A program made the position numbers and the translations under genes. The notes beneath the pieces were generated by a model. That model searched no databases and was not told where the DNA came from. It worked only from the letters and a program-made list of their open reading frames with translations. From positions 1-64,000 of the IMG/VR virus record IMGVR_UViG_3300008120_010803: a stretch of DNA of 64,000 nt, one strand, 5' to 3'. This document shows, one piece after another, positions 12,822 to 61,147 of this stretch (its first letter is position 1; every line of letters starts with the position of its first letter). This DNA is from a virus.

Positions 12822-12863
12822 AATTCTTATATAGTACATAAATAAAGTAGAATCGGAGGAATT

Positions 12864-13283
12864 ATGGCATTAGTTGTACCAGACGAAGCTGAAGTGCAAA
12901 TGTTGATTAGATTAGTGGGTGATATTACATCCTTACCTAGCAGAAATCAAGTGATGAAACTATACACCAGCCCTGCTGGAGATATTCTCGAAAACTTTAC
13001 TGCTGCTTCTTTCACAGAAGCTACTGCTGCTGGTTATGCAGCAGCAACTATGGTCCCTGCCGGTTGGACTGCTGCTACAGTTTCTGGCACTAGCACAGCA
13101 ACATATTCTCCTGATGTAACATTTTCATTTACCGCTGCCGAAACTGTTATGGGATATTATGTTGTGGACACAACTTCCCCCACAGCTGTTCTTTTATGGG
13201 CAGAATCCTTCTCTGGTGGCCCATTTGTTCTTCCTTCAAGCGGTGGACAAATTCAAATCACACCAACTTTATCGCTTGCTTAA
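12864..13283 (+). CDS. small virion structural protein (tail/baseplate-associated)
   Basis: Ala/Thr-rich beta-type composition; RBS GGAG; CATAAATA upstream. Confidence 0.6.
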   Translation: MALVVPDEAEVQMLIRLVGDITSLPSRNQVMKLYTSPAGDILENFTAASFTEATAAGYAAATMVPAGWTAATVSGTSTATYSPDVTFSFTAAETVMGYYVVDTTSPTAVLLWAESFSGGPFVLPSSGGQIQITPTLSLA

Positions 13284-17051: not shown

Positions 17052-17084
17052 TATAATATAAATAAATAAAAGACAGGAATTTTT

Positions 17085-21306: not shown

Positions 21307-21340
21307 CATATCAAAACATAAATAATCTTGGAGGATTATA

Positions 21341-44512: not shown

Positions 44513-45337
44513 ATGCAAGAAAATATGACATTTATGGAATGGCTTGGTGTCCCCCCGGAACAAATGTTCGGTTTTGTGGGAAATTTCGGACCAAAAGCAA
44601 CTGAAAAAACAAAAGTTTATTCCGAAGAGCCTTTGGAACCGCTACAAGTGTCTCTCATTTTAGACGAATTAGGATGGCTCGGATCAATTAATAATAAAAA
44701 GCCTCAAAGATTGTTCGAAAATGTTATGAGCTACGGAGATGTTGCAGACAGAATGCAAGTTGTTGTATCTCCATATGGCTCTCTTAAAATTATATTAAGA
44801 AAAGTCGCAACCACTTTGGAGGGAAGCTACATACCACTTTGTTATTCAATATATCCACTTATTAATGATTATAATCATAATGGAGAAAATGATGATCATA
44901 TTGAAAATATGATAGCAAATAAAATTGCAGATAAGCTTAATGAAATGGATAAAAGAATGATGTTAGGTGGAGAACGAAATTTTGAAGGCACCAGAGAATT
45001 GGTTTTAGAAATGGCTCAACATGTGAGAGCAAATCATCCTAGGTGTATGCACTTTGAGGGTGTAATTCAAAATGGAGAAAATGATTACACAATATACTTG
45101 CAATATAATGGACAAGGTGTTGAGGCCCCATCTGCCAAAAGAGTTGAGCAGTTTGATATACATCTGAATTACGATAAGGATACTGGATTGATTCGTTGCT
45201 GGGCTAATGAAATTACTAGTCCTACAAGACAACATCTTTGGCAAGTCCAACCTAGTGAATGGGATGAATACTTTTCTCCTAAACAAAAAAATAGTGAGAT
45301 TGTTGAGTGTATAATGAACGCTCTATATACCTATTAA
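44513..45337 (+). CDS. hypothetical protein
   Basis: 274-aa ORF, starts MQENMTFMEWLG. Confidence 0.65.
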   Translation: MQENMTFMEWLGVPPEQMFGFVGNFGPKATEKTKVYSEEPLEPLQVSLILDELGWLGSINNKKPQRLFENVMSYGDVADRMQVVVSPYGSLKIILRKVATTLEGSYIPLCYSIYPLINDYNHNGENDDHIENMIANKIADKLNEMDKRMMLGGERNFEGTRELVLEMAQHVRANHPRCMHFEGVIQNGENDYTIYLQYNGQGVEAPSAKRVEQFDIHLNYDKDTGLIRCWANEITSPTRQHLWQVQPSEWDEYFSPKQKNSEIVECIMNALYTY

Positions 45338-46017
45338 AATTCAAAACCAAAATACTTATTGTACATATCTGATAATTCTTTGATGTCAAAGTCTTTTAGG
45401 TTTTCTATGTTCGATAGGTCTATTATATCAGTTCTTATTTGATCAGGTAATTTCTGAATCCATTTCGAGCAAAAAACATATAATGGACTTATTTTTTTAA
45501 GTATGACAAACCTCAAAATATTTGGAGATTCTTTAATATAATTTTCTAAAGAAACATCTTCTTTTAATAAATCTTTTATTGTACGCAGAGTAAGTTCAAA
45601 TTCACTAACCACATTGGCTTCGAGATGAGCATAAGCTACTTTTGTAGTTTGCCTTTTTTCCTTAATTAATTTTTTCCACACAGCCCATCGGGCCTTTGCT
45701 TTATCTCCATGCAACAATGAGGGATCAACAAGTATACGATGGCCTTCTTTTTGGAGTTTGTGTGCTATTTCTAGTTGTGCTCTCATATACAGAACAAATT
45801 GAAAACCACTCAATGTTTCTTTGTTTGCTTTGACAAACTTCAACATATGTTTGAAAACAATACTTTTTCGAATATCTCCTTTTTTTGCTACCCTTGGGTG
45901 GCAATAATTTGGTAAAATCTTTCTTGTTAATTCAATCCATTGACAACAAAGTTGGTAGGCAAGAATCTCATCTTGATTGAGTCCTAGTTCCAGAGCCATA
46001 TGTGGGTCGTATTTCAT
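45334..46017 (-). CDS. putative helicase loader, T4 gp59-like
   Basis: Size and pattern (AYQL..., AKARWAVWKK, ILRFVILKKISP) recall gp59; near DnaB gene. Confidence 0.5.
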   Translation of the reverse strand: MKYDPHMALELGLNQDEILAYQLCCQWIELTRKILPNYCHPRVAKKGDIRKSIVFKHMLKFVKANKETLSGFQFVLYMRAQLEIAHKLQKEGHRILVDPSLLHGDKAKARWAVWKKLIKEKRQTTKVAYAHLEANVVSEFELTLRTIKDLLKEDVSLENYIKESPNILRFVILKKISPLYVFCSKWIQKLPDQIRTDIIDLSNIENLKDFDIKELSDMYNKYFGFEF

Positions 46018-46024
46018 ACTTCCA

Positions 46025-46063
46025 AGTTTACACTTTACAAAATGTTTGGCAATAGACTATAAT
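46025..46063. promoter_or_regulatory. overlapping divergent sigma70-type promoters
   Basis: + strand TTTACA(46034)-18-TATAAT(46058); - strand TTGCCA-16-TAAACT (46052-46025). Confidence 0.65.
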
Positions 46064-46079
46064 GCATTTGTGATTCAAG

Positions 46080-46460
46080 TAGGGTGAAGTGTCAACCCAA
46101 ACGATGATCATTTTAAAAATTGAAAGAAGTGAATTTGTTAAAAATTCTATTCAATTGATTTTTAAAATCAAAACCTGTCGGAGCGGTACTCCCTGCTAAG
46201 CCCATTAGGTAATACGGGAACCTAATGACCGACTTGAAGACAAGGTGAGCCTGTGCTTCGCCAAAAACGGCAGGCAGTAATTAGTCTAACTAATTACAGG
46301 GGTGCAGGTTAAGCGTCTTAAAATCGACACATTAAACCAAGACTAAGTTTATATACTTAGCAATAAGGTTTAAGTAGCTGTGAGAAAACTTATTTAAGTT
46401 TTTTTTCTCACACCTCCTTAAGCCTGCCCCCCGGTTTGGTTTTATTTTTAAATGATTTAT
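46080..46460 (+). ncRNA. unannotated structured ncRNA or origin element upstream of PolA-like gene
   Basis: At least 9 complementary helix pairs, some nested and long-range, with G-U pairs; ORF-free; GC-enriched core. Confidence 0.7.
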
Positions 46461-46537
46461 AATAAGCCAAATTTTAGTTTGTTTTATTGTGCCGTTTTTG
46501 TATGCTTATTGGATTCCCTTCTTTATAGGAATATTCC

Positions 46538-47866
46538 ATGATTGACTTGGAAGCCTTATGCGCTGAGTTTTTAAGTGTTGGTTCCAAAGAGCCTATTTTA
46601 TTTTTAGACTGGTCCCCTTCTGATCCTGATTCAACTACCTTGGTTAATTTGGCCCTTAAAATTCGTTTACAGAGCATTTCTGGCTATAGTCGTACTCTGG
46701 ACCTGAATTCGGAAAATTCCTTTTCTATTCTGCGTTTAATCGAGTCTGTTTTTTCTTCTAAGAAAATTTTTATACTTGGATATAATTTTAAATCTTTATT
46801 TTCTTATTATCGTCGTGTCTGTCGATCTGAACTGGTTTTGACTAATGTAATTGATCTTTTTTGGTACGAGTCTTATAGGTCAATTGAATCTAGTAAGGGT
46901 AATATGAATTTGGGCTTATCTAATTTTAAATCTCTGATAAAAGATGCAGAAACATACAAGCTATATTCAAGTTACTATCGTGATTTAATAAGCAAAGTTG
47001 TTCCATTCATGGAATCTTTTCCTATATTGAATGATGATACTGGAACTATAGTCTATAGTAATTATAACATTGAGGGGCAAGAGAATGGGAGGCTCTCATG
47101 TTCTTGCAATAAGAAGAATGTTTTCAATCCACATTCTTTAGGAGAAGAGAAGAAAAATCTTTTATTTTATAGTTCGAATTACAAGTATTTTATGCAATTC
47201 GACTATCGGAACATGGAAGTTGCGGTTTTGGCTGAATTGTCTGAAGACTCCGAGCTTCTTGATATTGTAAAGTCTCCTGATAATAATGTATATTCAAAGA
47301 TATTTGAAAAGGTTACTGGGGTAAAGAATCACGAAGATGCAAAAAATTTGGGTAAAAAAATATTTCTCCCGCTTATATATGGGCAGACCAAGAATGGCCT
47401 ATCTAAGTCATTAGACATATCAATAGATCAGGCAGAAATATATTTTAATAACGCCAAAAAATACTTCAAGAAAAGTTTTGATTATGTTGAAGCTGCACAA
47501 AATGAGGCTTCTTCTAAGGGTTATCTTGAAGACTGTTTCAGGAGAAAAAGATATTTCATAGATGGGGAATCATATAAGGCAAGGAATTTTATAATACAAT
47601 CTCCTTCTGCTTTAATTTGTTTGGAATCGTTGTTAAAATTGTATAGAGAAGCTCAAGATATTTTCGCTGTTGCGTTTCATGTGCATGACGGATATTTCTT
47701 GGCAATTAAGAAAGACAGCATACAAGAAGCTTTTTATAGTGCAAAAAAGGCTCTTGAAGGTAAGTTGAACCTGATGCCAAATTTACAGTTAAAAACAACT
47801 GCAAAGTTGGGAAAAACGCTGGATAAAATGGTTTTACTTGAGAAAAGAAAAGAAGGTGTAATTTGA
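46538..47866 (+). CDS. family A DNA polymerase, thumb-less with degenerate 3'-5' exonuclease domain
   Basis: NGRLS, motif A FDYRNME, motif B K...K....IYG, NFIIQS, motif C HVHDG. Confidence 0.85.
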   Translation: MIDLEALCAEFLSVGSKEPILFLDWSPSDPDSTTLVNLALKIRLQSISGYSRTLDLNSENSFSILRLIESVFSSKKIFILGYNFKSLFSYYRRVCRSELVLTNVIDLFWYESYRSIESSKGNMNLGLSNFKSLIKDAETYKLYSSYYRDLISKVVPFMESFPILNDDTGTIVYSNYNIEGQENGRLSCSCNKKNVFNPHSLGEEKKNLLFYSSNYKYFMQFDYRNMEVAVLAELSEDSELLDIVKSPDNNVYSKIFEKVTGVKNHEDAKNLGKKIFLPLIYGQTKNGLSKSLDISIDQAEIYFNNAKKYFKKSFDYVEAAQNEASSKGYLEDCFRRKRYFIDGESYKARNFIIQSPSALICLESLLKLYREAQDIFAVAFHVHDGYFLAIKKDSIQEAFYSAKKALEGKLNLMPNLQLKTTAKLGKTLDKMVLLEKRKEGVI

Positions 47867-48420
47867 GTTCAATATATTTAAATTTTCCGATCACATCTGA
47901 AGAGTATAAAAGTCTCGAAAAGAAATTTGGCCAGTTGTGTTATTATGCTGCATGGCAGTTAACCCGCAAGAACTCCAATAATAATCATCAATGTGATCTG
48001 GATGATTTTCAACAGGAACTAATGCTTGCGGTACTTCGTGCTGGTTCATATTACAAGAGACAAGTTTATATTGATAGTAGTTTTTCTGCTTTATTTGATA
48101 GCAAGATGGATAAAATTGCCAGAATGGTTTTGGAAGAATTGTTTGATTTATGGAAGAATCGTACTCGTCACGGCGCTAATCGGCAAAAATTTGGAGATCA
48201 TCAAGAGAAAATTTTGGACAATTTGTGCGAATGCTATTTACGAGACTTCAGAATTCCTGATAAAAAAAGAGAATTGATTTTTGATGCCAAGTTTTTTACC
48301 TATTGCAAACAAATAGTATGGAATGCACAGAGAAACCTTGGTAAAAAGATTACTAGGGAAAAGCCGATCCGAAGTGGTCAAGTAAGTTTGTCCGATCATG
48401 ATTATCTTGTTTATGGGTGA
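47863..48420 (+). CDS. sigma70 region-2-like protein
   Basis: DLDDFQQELMLAVLRA and AKFFTYCKQIVWNA separated by an insert. Confidence 0.55.
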   Translation: MSSIYLNFPITSEEYKSLEKKFGQLCYYAAWQLTRKNSNNNHQCDLDDFQQELMLAVLRAGSYYKRQVYIDSSFSALFDSKMDKIARMVLEELFDLWKNRTRHGANRQKFGDHQEKILDNLCECYLRDFRIPDKKRELIFDAKFFTYCKQIVWNAQRNLGKKITREKPIRSGQVSLSDHDYLVYG

Positions 48421-49931
48421 GTATGAGTGATTTAAGTGAATCTGAAAAACAAACTCTTACTTCACTTATAGCAAGTGCTCCTAAACCATCTAAATTCAAA
48501 TGGGACGATAATTTTCAGCGAAGAATATTAGGTCTGATTCTCACAGATAGTTTTTTTCTGGTTCAAAGTAAATCATTGATTCAGGCAGAATATTTTACAA
48601 ATGAAGCGCATGTTCAAATTTGCAGTACAATTTATGATTACCATGAAAAATACAAGTCCATGCCTGAGAAGTTTGTTGTCAAACAACTTTTGTTGGAAAA
48701 AATAAAACAAAAACAAGAATCTGTAATACTTTACTATCAAAACGAATTAGAAAATATATATGAAGCTTTTGTTCCCTCGACAGCATCTAGGGAAATACTG
48801 CTTGACAAGATATTGGTATTTGCGAAAACCCAAGCTCTGCGAATAGCCATGGATGTTTCGCAAAAGGATTTGAAGAAAGACCCAGAAAGCGAAGAAGTAT
48901 GGACTAAAATATACGAGCGTTTTAGAGACGCTATGAATATAAATAAGAATTTTGAAATAGGATTTGAATATTTCAAGGATATAGAATTATTCTTTGCTGA
49001 TTTAGGTAAAGATACATGTGTCGAAGATACATTTACAAGTGGTTTTTCGAAGATAGACACCGCTCTTGCTGGCGGGGGCTGTAAGCGTGGAGAGATATTT
49101 GCGTGGATTGGTATGCCCGGAAAGGGCAAATCGTTGAGTCTTGTTAAGGCTGCTGTAGACAATGTGAAGCGTGGCAAGAAGGTTATGTATCTGTCTGTAG
49201 AAATGGATTGTTATAGTATCGCCAAACGATTCACAAGTCAGTTCACATTCTTGCCCCATGTCAATCTTCTCAAGCATCGTGAAGAGATTGTCAATCTTTT
49301 GTCGATGGAAACAAGGAATTATACAGACAAGAATCGATTTCTAATCAAGCAGTTCCCATCTGGTCAGATAGATGTTAACGATATTGTTGCCTACTTGAAT
49401 CAATTAGAGCTTTATGGATTCAGGCCAGACCTTCTCATAGTGGATTACCCCGGTGAAATGAAAGATGCTCCGGGTATTCCACAATGGGAAAGCAAATACA
49501 GAATCATGCGTGATTTGCGTGGCCTTGCAATTCAAAATAAAATGTGTGTTTTCACCGCAATGCAGCCAAATAAAAATGCTGCAAATTTAGCAGAATCAGA
49601 GTTTATTGATGAAGGTACGATTGGTGGAAGCTTTGATCAATTCAAGCCTTTGGATGGTTTGTGGTCAATTAATCAGACGAATGATGAAACTTCTGCTGGA
49701 TTCGGAAGAGTGTTTGTGGTAAAACACAGGAATGGAAGAAGTAGGTTTAGCTTTACTGTCAAATACAACAAAGAGAACTTGGATATATCAGAGTGCTCCG
49801 AAGGTTTGTATCGCATTGGAATGCACAATTACCAACAGGCTAAGTCTGGTGAAGTTAATTTAGACGGTGCGGTTGAAAACAAAAATTACGAACCCAAGAG
49901 TGAAGAAGAGGAGATAGATTATGCCGAGTGA
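48417..49931 (+). CDS. replicative helicase, DnaB/T4 gp41-like
   Basis: GMPGKGKS, YLSVEM, LIVDY, TAMQ, KHRNG. Confidence 0.92.
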   Translation: MSMSDLSESEKQTLTSLIASAPKPSKFKWDDNFQRRILGLILTDSFFLVQSKSLIQAEYFTNEAHVQICSTIYDYHEKYKSMPEKFVVKQLLLEKIKQKQESVILYYQNELENIYEAFVPSTASREILLDKILVFAKTQALRIAMDVSQKDLKKDPESEEVWTKIYERFRDAMNINKNFEIGFEYFKDIELFFADLGKDTCVEDTFTSGFSKIDTALAGGGCKRGEIFAWIGMPGKGKSLSLVKAAVDNVKRGKKVMYLSVEMDCYSIAKRFTSQFTFLPHVNLLKHREEIVNLLSMETRNYTDKNRFLIKQFPSGQIDVNDIVAYLNQLELYGFRPDLLIVDYPGEMKDAPGIPQWESKYRIMRDLRGLAIQNKMCVFTAMQPNKNAANLAESEFIDEGTIGGSFDQFKPLDGLWSINQTNDETSAGFGRVFVVKHRNGRSRFSFTVKYNKENLDISECSEGLYRIGMHNYQQAKSGEVNLDGAVENKNYEPKSEEEEIDYAE

Positions 49932-50361
49932 AAATTTCAGAATTGGTGAGCAAACTTTTGAAATTAATGCTGAAAACCTCAAGTTTTCAGATGCGACCCT
50001 GAATACTTTTTTTGAAAAGATTTCAGGAATTACTGATTATGTTGGTGCTGCTTTGTCTGAAGCCACAAGACAGCACTCTTTGCTGGAAGCAAAATATAAA
50101 CAAGATTACATAGGCAAGTTCAAGTTTTACAAGGAAGAGGGCAAGAGCGATAAAACCTCTGAGTTATATGCAGAGGGAGACCCTGATGTAGCTTTGGTAA
50201 AAGAAGCAGTCATAAATGCAAAATATATCAAAGATCGTCTGTATGCTCATTTAAATGCTCTTAACAATGCCAGAGATGATGCTCATAATCGTGGTCATAT
50301 GTTGAGAAAAGAAATGGATAAATTGGATATGGACATAAAGATGGGTGTCGCTGGACTTTAA
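49921..50361 (+). CDS. uvsY: recombination mediator, UvsY-like
   Basis: Size, helical composition, position after helicase. Confidence 0.6.
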   Translation: MPSENFRIGEQTFEINAENLKFSDATLNTFFEKISGITDYVGAALSEATRQHSLLEAKYKQDYIGKFKFYKEEGKSDKTSELYAEGDPDVALVKEAVINAKYIKDRLYAHLNALNNARDDAHNRGHMLRKEMDKLDMDIKMGVAGL

Positions 50362-60535: not shown

Positions 60536-60537
60536 AA

Positions 60538-60819
60538 TTACTTTGTGACCATATCTTCAGGTCCAAAAAAATCATTTGGATATTCAATTTTCACTTTTCC
60601 ATCACCATCAGTTGGATTTCCGTTTTCATCTTCTACCCACCACCTTACTTGTTTGATTTCGATTCCAAGTTCGTCCATATGGCAACTATCTCCCGGATCA
60701 ACTGGAAGGTGGTATTCATCACCTTCGATCAATACTGCAACTTTACATGTTGAATTTGCTCTATTGTAAAGCAAACAGTTATTGCATATTTTTTTTACTT
60801 TATTTGAAATCGAATCCAT
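60538..60819 (-). CDS. Cys-containing hypothetical protein
   Basis: C.NC......C...CH pattern. Confidence 0.55.
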   Translation of the reverse strand: MDSISNKVKKICNNCLLYNRANSTCKVAVLIEGDEYHLPVDPGDSCHMDELGIEIKQVRWWVEDENGNPTDGDGKVKIEYPNDFFGPEDMVTK

Positions 60820-61090
60820 TATGTACAACCTCAAGAATTTTTGGCTCTTTGCCTATAAAGTTATTATAGGTTTCCAAAGCTTCAAATTCATGGAGGGTAA
60901 ATGTATCCCCATATTTTAAAGGTCTAGGAACATAAGGTATCCATACAGTTTGAGCTTTAAGCTGTAATAAAATGTTTTCCATGTTGCCGTCTGGAGAAGA
61001 TTGAGAAAGTATTTTAGGAAAATCTATGTTTGATACTTTGAATGTGATTGATGGGAGACCAAATGTTTGATTGCTTATTTTTATTGACAC
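60800..61090 (-). CDS. hypothetical protein
   Basis: GAGG RBS; GTG start. Confidence 0.55.
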   Translation of the reverse strand: MSIKISNQTFGLPSITFKVSNIDFPKILSQSSPDGNMENILLQLKAQTVWIPYVPRPLKYGDTFTLHEFEALETYNNFIGKEPKILEVVHNGFDFK

Positions 61091-61147
61091 GACATTCCTC
61101 TCTATGTTAAAATTTCAATATAGTTATTTTAATTAAGAGAGAAAAAA

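Follow-up and report, generated by a model that had tools for sequence, protein, structure and literature searches.

A structured three-pseudoknot RNA upstream of a predicted thumbless family A DNA polymerase in freshwater megaphages

Introduction

What does a phage encode in a long, untranslated gap that directly precedes one of its DNA polymerase genes? This question is raised by a 64,000-nt stretch of viral DNA (positions 1 to 64,000 of IMG/VR record IMGVR_UViG_3300008120_010803; hereafter the window), in which a 520-nt gap free of open reading frames (ORFs; 46018-46537) stands immediately before the gene of a 442-aa family A DNA polymerase (PolA). A first-pass annotation of the window had proposed that this gap holds a structured non-coding RNA (ncRNA) which, together with a polymerase that has lost its thumb subdomain, forms an ncRNA-polymerase module in the replication locus. 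Here we find that the RNA is genuine and structured and constitutes a new, previously undescribed family, and that PolA, as judged from alignments and a structural model, has no thumb; both the structured RNA and this apparently thumbless polymerase are new. How the two are related is the second question, for which we weigh four readings.

The window is a phage fragment (GC ~35%) whose source record spans 80,161 nt, with a completeness rating of 15%. Related records reach 381 kb at 79% completeness, and a 595-kb GenBank "uncultured phage" has the same locus; because these large relatives share it, the source phages are freshwater megaphages.

Results and Discussion

The gap and its promoter

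The RNA, its parts and the elements that frame it are given below; all lie on the + strand, which is the coding strand of PolA.

46034..46063, + strand: sigma-70-type promoter of the RNA, TTTACA-18 nt-TATAAT, 11 of 12 consensus matches
46070..46441, + strand: structured RNA of ~370 nt, delimited by fold z-score, homology hits and covariation
46082..46098, + strand: hairpin H1 (GGGU/ACCC), 100% paired
46089-46093 (GUGUC, in the H1 loop) with 46326-46330 (GACAC), + strand: pseudoknot PK-A, 100% paired, 3 of 5 pairs compensatory
46177..46233, + strand: three-way junction, the core of covariance model R1
46177-81/46229-33, + strand: helix P1, 99% paired, 5 of 5 pairs covarying
46182-86/46193-97, + strand: helix Pa, an arm of the three-way junction
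46203-10/46220-27, + strand: helix Pb, loop AAUACGGGA, 8 of 8 pairs covarying
46239..46317, + strand: helix H3 (GAC 46239-41/GUC 46315-17; AGCCUGU 46248-54/GCAGGUU 46304-10), from the alignments
46269-46274 (GGCAGG) with 46423-46428 (CCUGCC), + strand: pseudoknot PK-B, 100% paired
46215-46218 (CGGG, in the Pb loop) with 46430-46433 (CCCG, in the 3' tail), + strand: pseudoknot PK-C, covarying
46343..46360, + strand: hairpin P5, variable in sequence and kept as a hairpin in minimum free energy (MFE) folds of the 3' domain from 13 loci
46366..46425, + strand: long hairpin P6, a purine-rich 5' strand against a pyrimidine-rich 3' strand
46442..46537, + strand: T-rich spacer from the RNA to the PolA start codon, with TATAAT at 46458-63

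The promoter that had been read into the gap was recovered at 46034-46063, and from its position the transcript would be expected to start near 46070. Each of the 11 close relatives has a -35/-10 pair ~15 nt ahead of H1, with differing sequences but the same distance, and promoters were also seen by eye ahead of the RNA in the distant loci L030 and L021. Downstream of the RNA, the spacer measures 75-115 nt across all clades. It carries a -10-like motif that recurs at the same place in relatives (TATAAT here and TGTA(A/G)A-like sequences there), which may mark a second promoter, and a sequence scan found no canonical terminator or terminator-like site between the RNA and PolA.

Two further features of the gap fared less well. 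The T-skewed tract is present (46400-46900, AT skew -0.28 to -0.37), but the skew is strong in the window and its nearest relative only and fades in other relatives, so that it is lineage-specific rather than conserved. That the gap is the largest of the window is doubtful as well, since an ORF-poor stretch at 60536-61147 (612 nt without any ORF of at least 100 aa, just short ORFs that overlap one another and reach at most 98 aa) exceeds its 520 nt.

Structure and covariation of the RNA

The segment 46150-46450 folds far better than shuffled sequences on either strand (z -5.5 on the + strand, -6.2 on the - strand). Several G-U pairs are conserved that would give C-A mismatches on the opposite strand, which places the element on the PolA (+) strand. 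In an alignment fitted to the model, 93.9% of cells pair, compared with at most 43% in slid controls, and 24 of the 28 pairs show compensatory change. A structure-blind MAFFT alignment, whose scoring took in H1, Pa, Pb, H3 and the three pseudoknots, gave 98.3% paired cells against at most 44.5% in slid controls, with 16 of 39 pairs covarying. The multi-helix element noticed at first reading is thus conserved in structure and covaries above slid controls.

The three pseudoknots are maintained through extensive sequence change. In PK-A, GUGUC/GACAC is replaced by GCAUC/GAUGU (L099), UUGUC/GACAA (L004) and UUAAC/GUUAA (L007, L009), and in distant loci by CGUACU/AGUACG (L030) and UGUACU/AGUACA (L021). 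At the center of PK-B, A-U, G-C and U-A are all seen, and distant clades carry wholly different complementary pairs, e.g., UGCUGACU/GGUCAGCA, GCCGACUU/AAGUCGGC and AGCAGACUG/UAGUCUGCU. PK-C is CGGG/CCCG in 17 loci, CGAG/CUCG in eight loci and UGGG/CCCA in L005 and L099; its tail always follows immediately 3' of the PK-B 3' strand.

Among the helices, H3 contains an invariant G-U pair (46249/46309) and encloses the 5' strand of PK-B together with a hairpin (46277-85/46289-97) that is variable in sequence and length. P6 has the same architecture in 13 of 13 loci folded separately by MFE: below a variable tip, the U-run 46399-46406 is matched by an A-run further inside the hairpin, and the basal strands covary, e.g., UCAAAGAGG/CCUCCUUGA, UCUAGAGUGGU/ACCACCUUAGA and GGUUUGGA/UCCAAGCC. 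The U-run accordingly sits inside P6, and the most conserved block comes right after it. The 3' segment of the RNA is buried in PK-B and PK-C, leaving no free 3' end. An additional closing helix P0 (AAACC/GGUUU) is plausible but weak.

Several other pairings were set aside. The long-range pair 46299-313/46417-31 suggested at first reading gives way to H3, P6 and PK-B, in which these segments pair instead. A pairing of the P1 5' strand with the 3' tail, returned by RNAalifold, was rejected because the local P1 covaries, and an anti-Shine-Dalgarno-like CACCUCCUUA in block 4 is regarded as coincidental, since that strand covaries with the P6 5' strand.

Novelty and distribution of the RNA

The search against Rfam that the first-pass annotation had recommended was run and matched no family. 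With Rfam 15, nothing reached the gathering threshold in the whole window, and at E-values up to 10 the interval 45950-46600 yielded just chance microRNA-like matches to one hairpin. Rfam gave no match at the element in 12 related loci either, no tRNA matches the element, and no account of this RNA was found in the literature.

Homologous loci were gathered by scans of viral, metagenome and genome data. The RNA recurs in at least 30 of these related loci, upstream of the ~440-aa PolA and on the same strand. Searches at the sequence level, with the gap sequence and then with profiles (nhmmer), matched upstream of PolA in relatives whose PolA is 42-60% identical; the gap sequence by itself reached relatives with PolA 44-60% identical, in blocks that share 77-86% nucleotide identity, and conserved blocks alternate with length-variable hairpins. 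Covariance model R1, which describes the RNA core in 158 positions and 28 pairs, matches 24 loci (25 of 26 matches), all on the + strand and a few hundred nucleotides upstream of PolA, including loci with PolA 33-37% identical. When the filters were switched off, four further distant loci matched at the expected position, and L027, L030 and L021 were confirmed by eye as carrying the RNA. Additionally, a strict hand-written descriptor (the Pb hairpin with a CGRG loop, inside P1 and with AAAC in front) matches 24 of 55 distinct loci within 750 nt upstream of PolA, compared with five matches in ~450 kb elsewhere and six on reverse strands. Taken together, the RNA accompanies PolA homologs down to ~30% identity, with sensitivity for the distant clades resting on R1, the descriptor and reading by eye.

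Outside this setting the RNA was not encountered. A pattern scan of 185,579 prokaryote genomes returned 50 matches, 49 of them due to chance, and the single real match is a phage-like 271-kb contig with the same gene order. A DNA search of isolated phages gave no match, and three small lake metatranscriptomes contained next to no words of the element. In the records searched, the RNA is single-copy, with no instance away from PolA; the whole-record searches with R1 were a loose first look that missed known instances and are hence little informative. A weak second R1 match lies at G003:189356-189468 (19 bits, E 0.002), ~40 kb from the PolA gene of relative G003, and is either a chance match or a diverged second copy.

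A family A polymerase predicted to lack the thumb

The gene that follows the spacer is described by the following line.

46538..47866, + strand: family A DNA polymerase (PolA), 442 aa, Pfam DNA_pol_A 1e-31

In the Pfam alignment, PolA residues 139-427 correspond to DNA_pol_A positions 85-378, and sequence-profile searches of the PDB hit family A polymerases at 1e-24. The predicted domains are a reduced exonuclease-like N domain, a palm and fingers, with no thumb. Homologs of ~435-455 aa form 84 protein clusters and occur at more than 200 viral-contig loci. Residues of the catalytic motifs are invariant (motif A D222/E227, motif B K273/G282, motif C H383/D384) and Y281 is nearly so (alignment A1); motif C reads HDG, with Gly directly after D384. 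In 22 of 22 aligned homologs, MES..LND is followed within ~4-10 residues by VYSNY.IEGQENGRLS, a segment that we take to be the counterpart of the Klenow "...HTSYHQAVTATGRLSS" motif. Between these two segments, according to the profile alignment with the PDB, Klenow has ~95 thumb residues (helices H-I).

The AlphaFold model of PolA (pLDDT 93.9, pTM 0.91) consists of a small exonuclease-like domain, a helix (137-159) and then the palm strands (163-174), without thumb helices. Foldseek matched it to whole Klenow, Bst, Pol nu and apicoplast Pol chains at TMq 0.71-0.79; these partners are 140-200 residues longer, and PolA has 442 aa compared with 575-605 for Klenow-type fragments. Pfam match, alignment and model thus agree on the minimal, apparently thumbless PolA that the first-pass annotation had described. 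By eye, the Exo I position of the alignment reads D-S-T-T and the Exo II position N-F-K-S, without the usual acidic residues.

The available part of the 2023 reclassification of family A describes broken and extended thumbs, with no thumbless class (PMC10201439). Compared with the Klenow-type enzymes, including CCPol-MP and the "broken thumb" subfamilies as covered in that part (PMC10201439), PolA is alike in palm and fingers, motifs A-C and the exonuclease-like domain, whereas the ~95-residue thumb appears to be gone entirely, the exonuclease motifs are degenerate and motif C is HDG. No report of a thumbless family A polymerase was found in the literature.

PolA is not the only DNA polymerase that these phages encode. 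The N-terminal part of DNA polymerase III (Pol III) alpha is encoded at 79663-79977 of the same record, ~32 kb beyond PolA on the downstream side. Matches to Pol III alpha fall in two distinct reading frames, 5-10 kb from each other, in the relatives G001 and G003, suggesting that the gene is split or interrupted there; in the 595-kb relative it is one 1183-aa frame. A search of this record and of four large relatives returned no PolB. Since Pol III alpha is encoded and no PolB was found, the apparently thumbless PolA is probably an accessory enzyme and not the main replicase; the "dedicated initiator" role once proposed for it is possible but not required, given that Pol III alpha is also encoded. 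A widespread polymerase that would lack the whole thumb and yet keeps its catalytic motifs raises the questions of how DNA is held and what role the enzyme plays beside a Pol III-type replicase.

Linkage of the RNA to PolA

The proposed module would have been refuted by homologous PolA genes without a conserved upstream structure, and this check turned out in its favor: a conserved, covarying structure was found just upstream of most homologs of the apparently thumbless PolA, on the same strand and behind a conserved promoter. The RNA stays beside PolA despite 0.7-1.7 kb of extra DNA between PolA and p227, the divergent gene on the far side of the gap (L011, L021, L028, L030, L043, L077). Furthermore, the RNA, PolA and p185, the gene that directly follows PolA, persist as a trio where the DnaB helicase gene is displaced. 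A functional coupling of RNA and PolA is plausible.

The L033/L045 subclade has the PolA of this type and p185 with no such RNA upstream. Approximately 10 tandem GGTTTAATT repeats and several CGAAG-loop hairpins take its place (L045:3592-3690, L033:3740-3930), so that this gap looks like iteron or origin furniture or like a different regulatory region; no RNA was found on 75 kb and 40 kb of the L033/L045 contigs, which are incomplete. The ncRNA-polymerase module therefore stands with respect to the conserved linkage of RNA and PolA, but it is weakened by this subclade, and nothing shows a role of the RNA as primer, template or thumb.

Possible functions of the RNA

RNase P, riboswitches, ROOL and GOLLD are earlier large structured RNAs that opened new biology. 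A large RNA with three pseudoknots, a covariation-supported architecture and no Rfam match is of a rare kind, and its strict position ahead of a single polymerase gene offers a concrete hypothesis to start from. We considered four readings, which in descending order of probability are a leader of the PolA transcript, a separate stable RNA, a ribonucleoprotein with PolA, and an RNA-primed origin.

The reading that we favor, and hold tentatively, is that the RNA is a structured early 5' leader of the PolA-p185(-DnaB) operon transcript. The lack of a terminator, together with a constant distance of 75-115 nt on the same strand that is kept when the neighborhood changes, makes a leader most likely. 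Host sigma-70 RNA polymerase would transcribe the RNA early from the conserved promoter, and the RNA would fold into a closed compact body made up of H1, the three-way junction, H3, P5, P6 and the three pseudoknots, the latter anchoring the 3' tail and the loop of the 5' hairpin in the core. Transcription would presumably read through into PolA, and the leader may then set PolA-p185(-DnaB) output, either through a protein or small ligand that it binds or through control of processing or stability. The product would probably act as a thumbless, proofreading-poor, short-patch accessory polymerase beside the phage Pol III alpha.

There is precedent for such an arrangement. The mRNA leaders of T4 genes 32 and 43 are autogenous translational operators, and the gene 32 leader has a pseudoknot. 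They likewise are structured RNAs that immediately precede a replication gene within a module for replication and recombination, and the module described here is T4-like in that gp32, UvsX/RecA, UvsW, Dda and Rad50-like genes are present. The RNA of this locus differs from the T4 leaders in being several times larger, in having three pseudoknots and in ending ~95 nt before the start codon; it has no sequence or Rfam relation to them.

Several observations weigh against a leader. With ~370 nt and three pseudoknots the RNA exceeds the protein-binding leaders known so far, and most riboswitches, in size and elaboration. A distance of ~95 nt separates its 3' end from the start codon, and the RNA was not seen to pair with the PolA ribosome-binding site. 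The conserved -10-like motif of the spacer suggests a promoter of PolA's own, in which case the RNA would be a separate gene. In addition, the module as a whole has a conserved gene order, which makes adjacency weigh less than it does in bacteria, and the L033/L045 subclade does without the RNA at this place.

Next in order, and somewhat unlikely, is a free-standing stable ncRNA gene that acts in trans as a scaffold, a sponge or a catalyst and lies beside PolA through conserved gene order. Such a gene would be expected to have what is seen here, namely its own conserved promoter, a closed and self-contained fold with the 3' tail docked in the core, a single copy in the searched records, and a size and pseudoknot content typical of stable RNAs, while the -10-like motif right after the RNA could drive PolA on its own. 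Less easily accommodated are the distance and orientation to PolA, which are fixed even where the upstream DNA differs, the lack of a terminator after the RNA, and the fact that the RNA was never found away from PolA. The possible second promoter in the spacer is the main obstacle to deciding between leader and separate RNA gene. Among stable RNAs, GOLLD, ROOL, the raiA motif and OLE are alike in length (hundreds of nucleotides), in their many helices and pseudoknots, in phage association and in a function unknown at discovery; unlike them, the RNA described here matches no Rfam model and has PolA as its constant neighbor, where theirs are tRNA clusters or varied contexts.

We regard it as clearly unlikely that the RNA and the thumbless PolA, perhaps with p185, form a ribonucleoprotein in which the RNA serves as primer, template, substitute for the DNA grip or recruiter. 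What draws attention to this possibility is the invariant trio of RNA, PolA and p185 beside a varying DnaB adjacency, a PolA apparently without the subdomain that grips the primer-template duplex, and the persistence of the RNA to ~30% PolA identity. The L033/L045 loci, however, have this PolA and p185 with no such RNA upstream and none found on their contigs, and p185 looks sigma-like. The 3' tail is paired in PK-B and PK-C and thus not free for priming, which speaks against the primer role that had been suggested earlier. The fuller version, in which RNA, PolA and p185 are one machine and the RNA replaces the thumb's grip on duplex, primer or template or targets PolA to particular sites, we consider improbable, and the primer, template and thumb-substitute roles are speculative. 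Retrons and defense-associated reverse transcriptases (DRT) likewise have a structured RNA directly upstream of a polymerase gene on the same strand, whereas the enzyme here is DNA_pol_A without a hit to any reverse transcriptase family, the setting is a phage replication operon and not a defense island, and no templated product is known. If RNA and PolA did cooperate, PolA would be the first family A polymerase to depend on RNA, with a dedicated RNA subunit; otherwise the RNA still represents a new class of giant-phage RNA, either regulatory or stable.

Most improbable of the four is the RNA-primed origin of the first-pass annotation, in the manner of ColE1 RNA II or a T4 R-loop, in which the transcript would be extended by a low-processivity PolA before hand-off to DnaB and Pol III: a strong early promoter does face the replication genes, family A polymerase, DnaB and Pol III alpha are the cast of a ColE1-type hand-off, and the L033/L045 gap holds tandem repeats and hairpins like origin furniture, but an R-loop calls for the opposite of a compact pseudoknotted RNA, the T-rich tract is not conserved, a PF02739 search found no RNase H or FEN, and the cumulative GC skew of the 595-kb relative is monotonic with no switch at the locus. 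ColE1 RNA II with Pol I is similar in that a folded RNA of several hundred nucleotides, behind a promoter, lies upstream of a possible family A polymerase site, and differs in that no evidence was found here of a hybrid, of RNase H processing or of an antisense regulator, in the paired 3' tail and in the absence of a skew sign of an origin.

Neighboring genes

The genes that surround the RNA and PolA are the following.

47863..48420, + strand: p185, 185 aa, all-helical, with a weak likeness to sigma-70 region 2
48417..49931, + strand: DnaB-like replicative helicase, Pfam DnaB_C 5e-9, phrog_19 1e-52
49921..50361, + strand: p146, candidate UvsY-like mediator, Atlas score 0.95
45334..46017, - strand: p227, 227 aa, conserved and divergent, upstream in most loci
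46171-46144, - strand: promoter-like site, likely of p227, inside the variable region of the RNA

The genes downstream of the gap are overlap-coupled as first described (PolA 46538-47866, p185 47863-48420, DnaB 48417-49931, p146 49921-50361). p185 stands right after PolA in nearly every related locus and is absent only in L044; its identity is 49-89% where that of PolA is 29-80%. Its model is all-helical (pLDDT 82). The claim of a sigma-2-like protein finds partial support: Sigma70_r2 appears below threshold in 7 of 18 homologs, and at least 12 sigma chains match at Z 5.1-6.0 over ~75-80 residues, but the likeness is weak (best E 0.007), and Z-scores of this range (5-6) are common for helical proteins. 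Foldseek and the PDB sequence profile gave no match for p185. We consider the likeness weak but consistent and therefore suggestive, and p185 is probably a sigma-region-2-like transcription factor rather than a polymerase subunit. A complex prediction of PolA with p185 scored 0.02, without a verdict. T4 gp55, the late sigma with a region-2-like core, has the same size of 185 aa as the all-helical p185 with its weak Sigma70_r2 hits, whereas hhalign of p185 alignment A8 against gp55 found no sequence relation (probability 0.2%). T4-late-like (C/T)ATAAATAA motifs lie 20-35 nt upstream of structural genes starting at 12864, 17085 and 21341 (sites at ~12835-12850, 17055-17070 and 21315-21330, and others). 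These motifs would fit a phage-encoded late sigma, and p185 may have a role in late transcription.

The identification of DnaB is borne out by its Pfam DnaB_C and phrog_19 matches. The adjacency of DnaB is lost in L007-L009, and several distant loci have the gene at a greater distance. In the L007-L009 lineage, a tRNA gene (L007:5948-6021, - strand) is found just downstream of p185, with no DnaB within the locus, so that the gene order is broken right behind the PolA-p185 pair. For p146, the assignment to UvsY remains a lead: 12-16% of the members of its Atlas clusters carry PF11056 UvsY, but p146 itself has no direct Pfam hit. The "gp59-like" loader attributed to p227 found no support, as five homologs gave no Pfam or PHROG match at E-values up to 10 and Atlas offered no informative neighbor. 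The mRNA leader of p227 would be antisense to the first ~100 nt of the RNA and to the RNA promoter.

Phage context

Pfam and PHROG searches of the window identified genes for a tail sheath, ribonucleotide reductase, CTP synthase, a Rad50/SbcC-like ATPase, a gp32-like single-stranded DNA-binding protein and a RecA/UvsX-like protein, in addition to Dda-like, UvsW-like, DnaB-like and Ski2-like helicases. Among the loci gathered, the 271-kb contig CAYVOK010000001.1 (L154) carries the full RNA-PolA-p185-DnaB module and is filed in a metagenome-assembled genome (MAG) under the label Acidimicrobiaceae; either a megaphage was binned wrongly, or the label hints at the host. The chance matches to the short pattern include L144 and L183, two MAGs from different phyla that each contain a contig of exactly 374,492 nt, and this agreement in length suggests that a single large element was binned into both.

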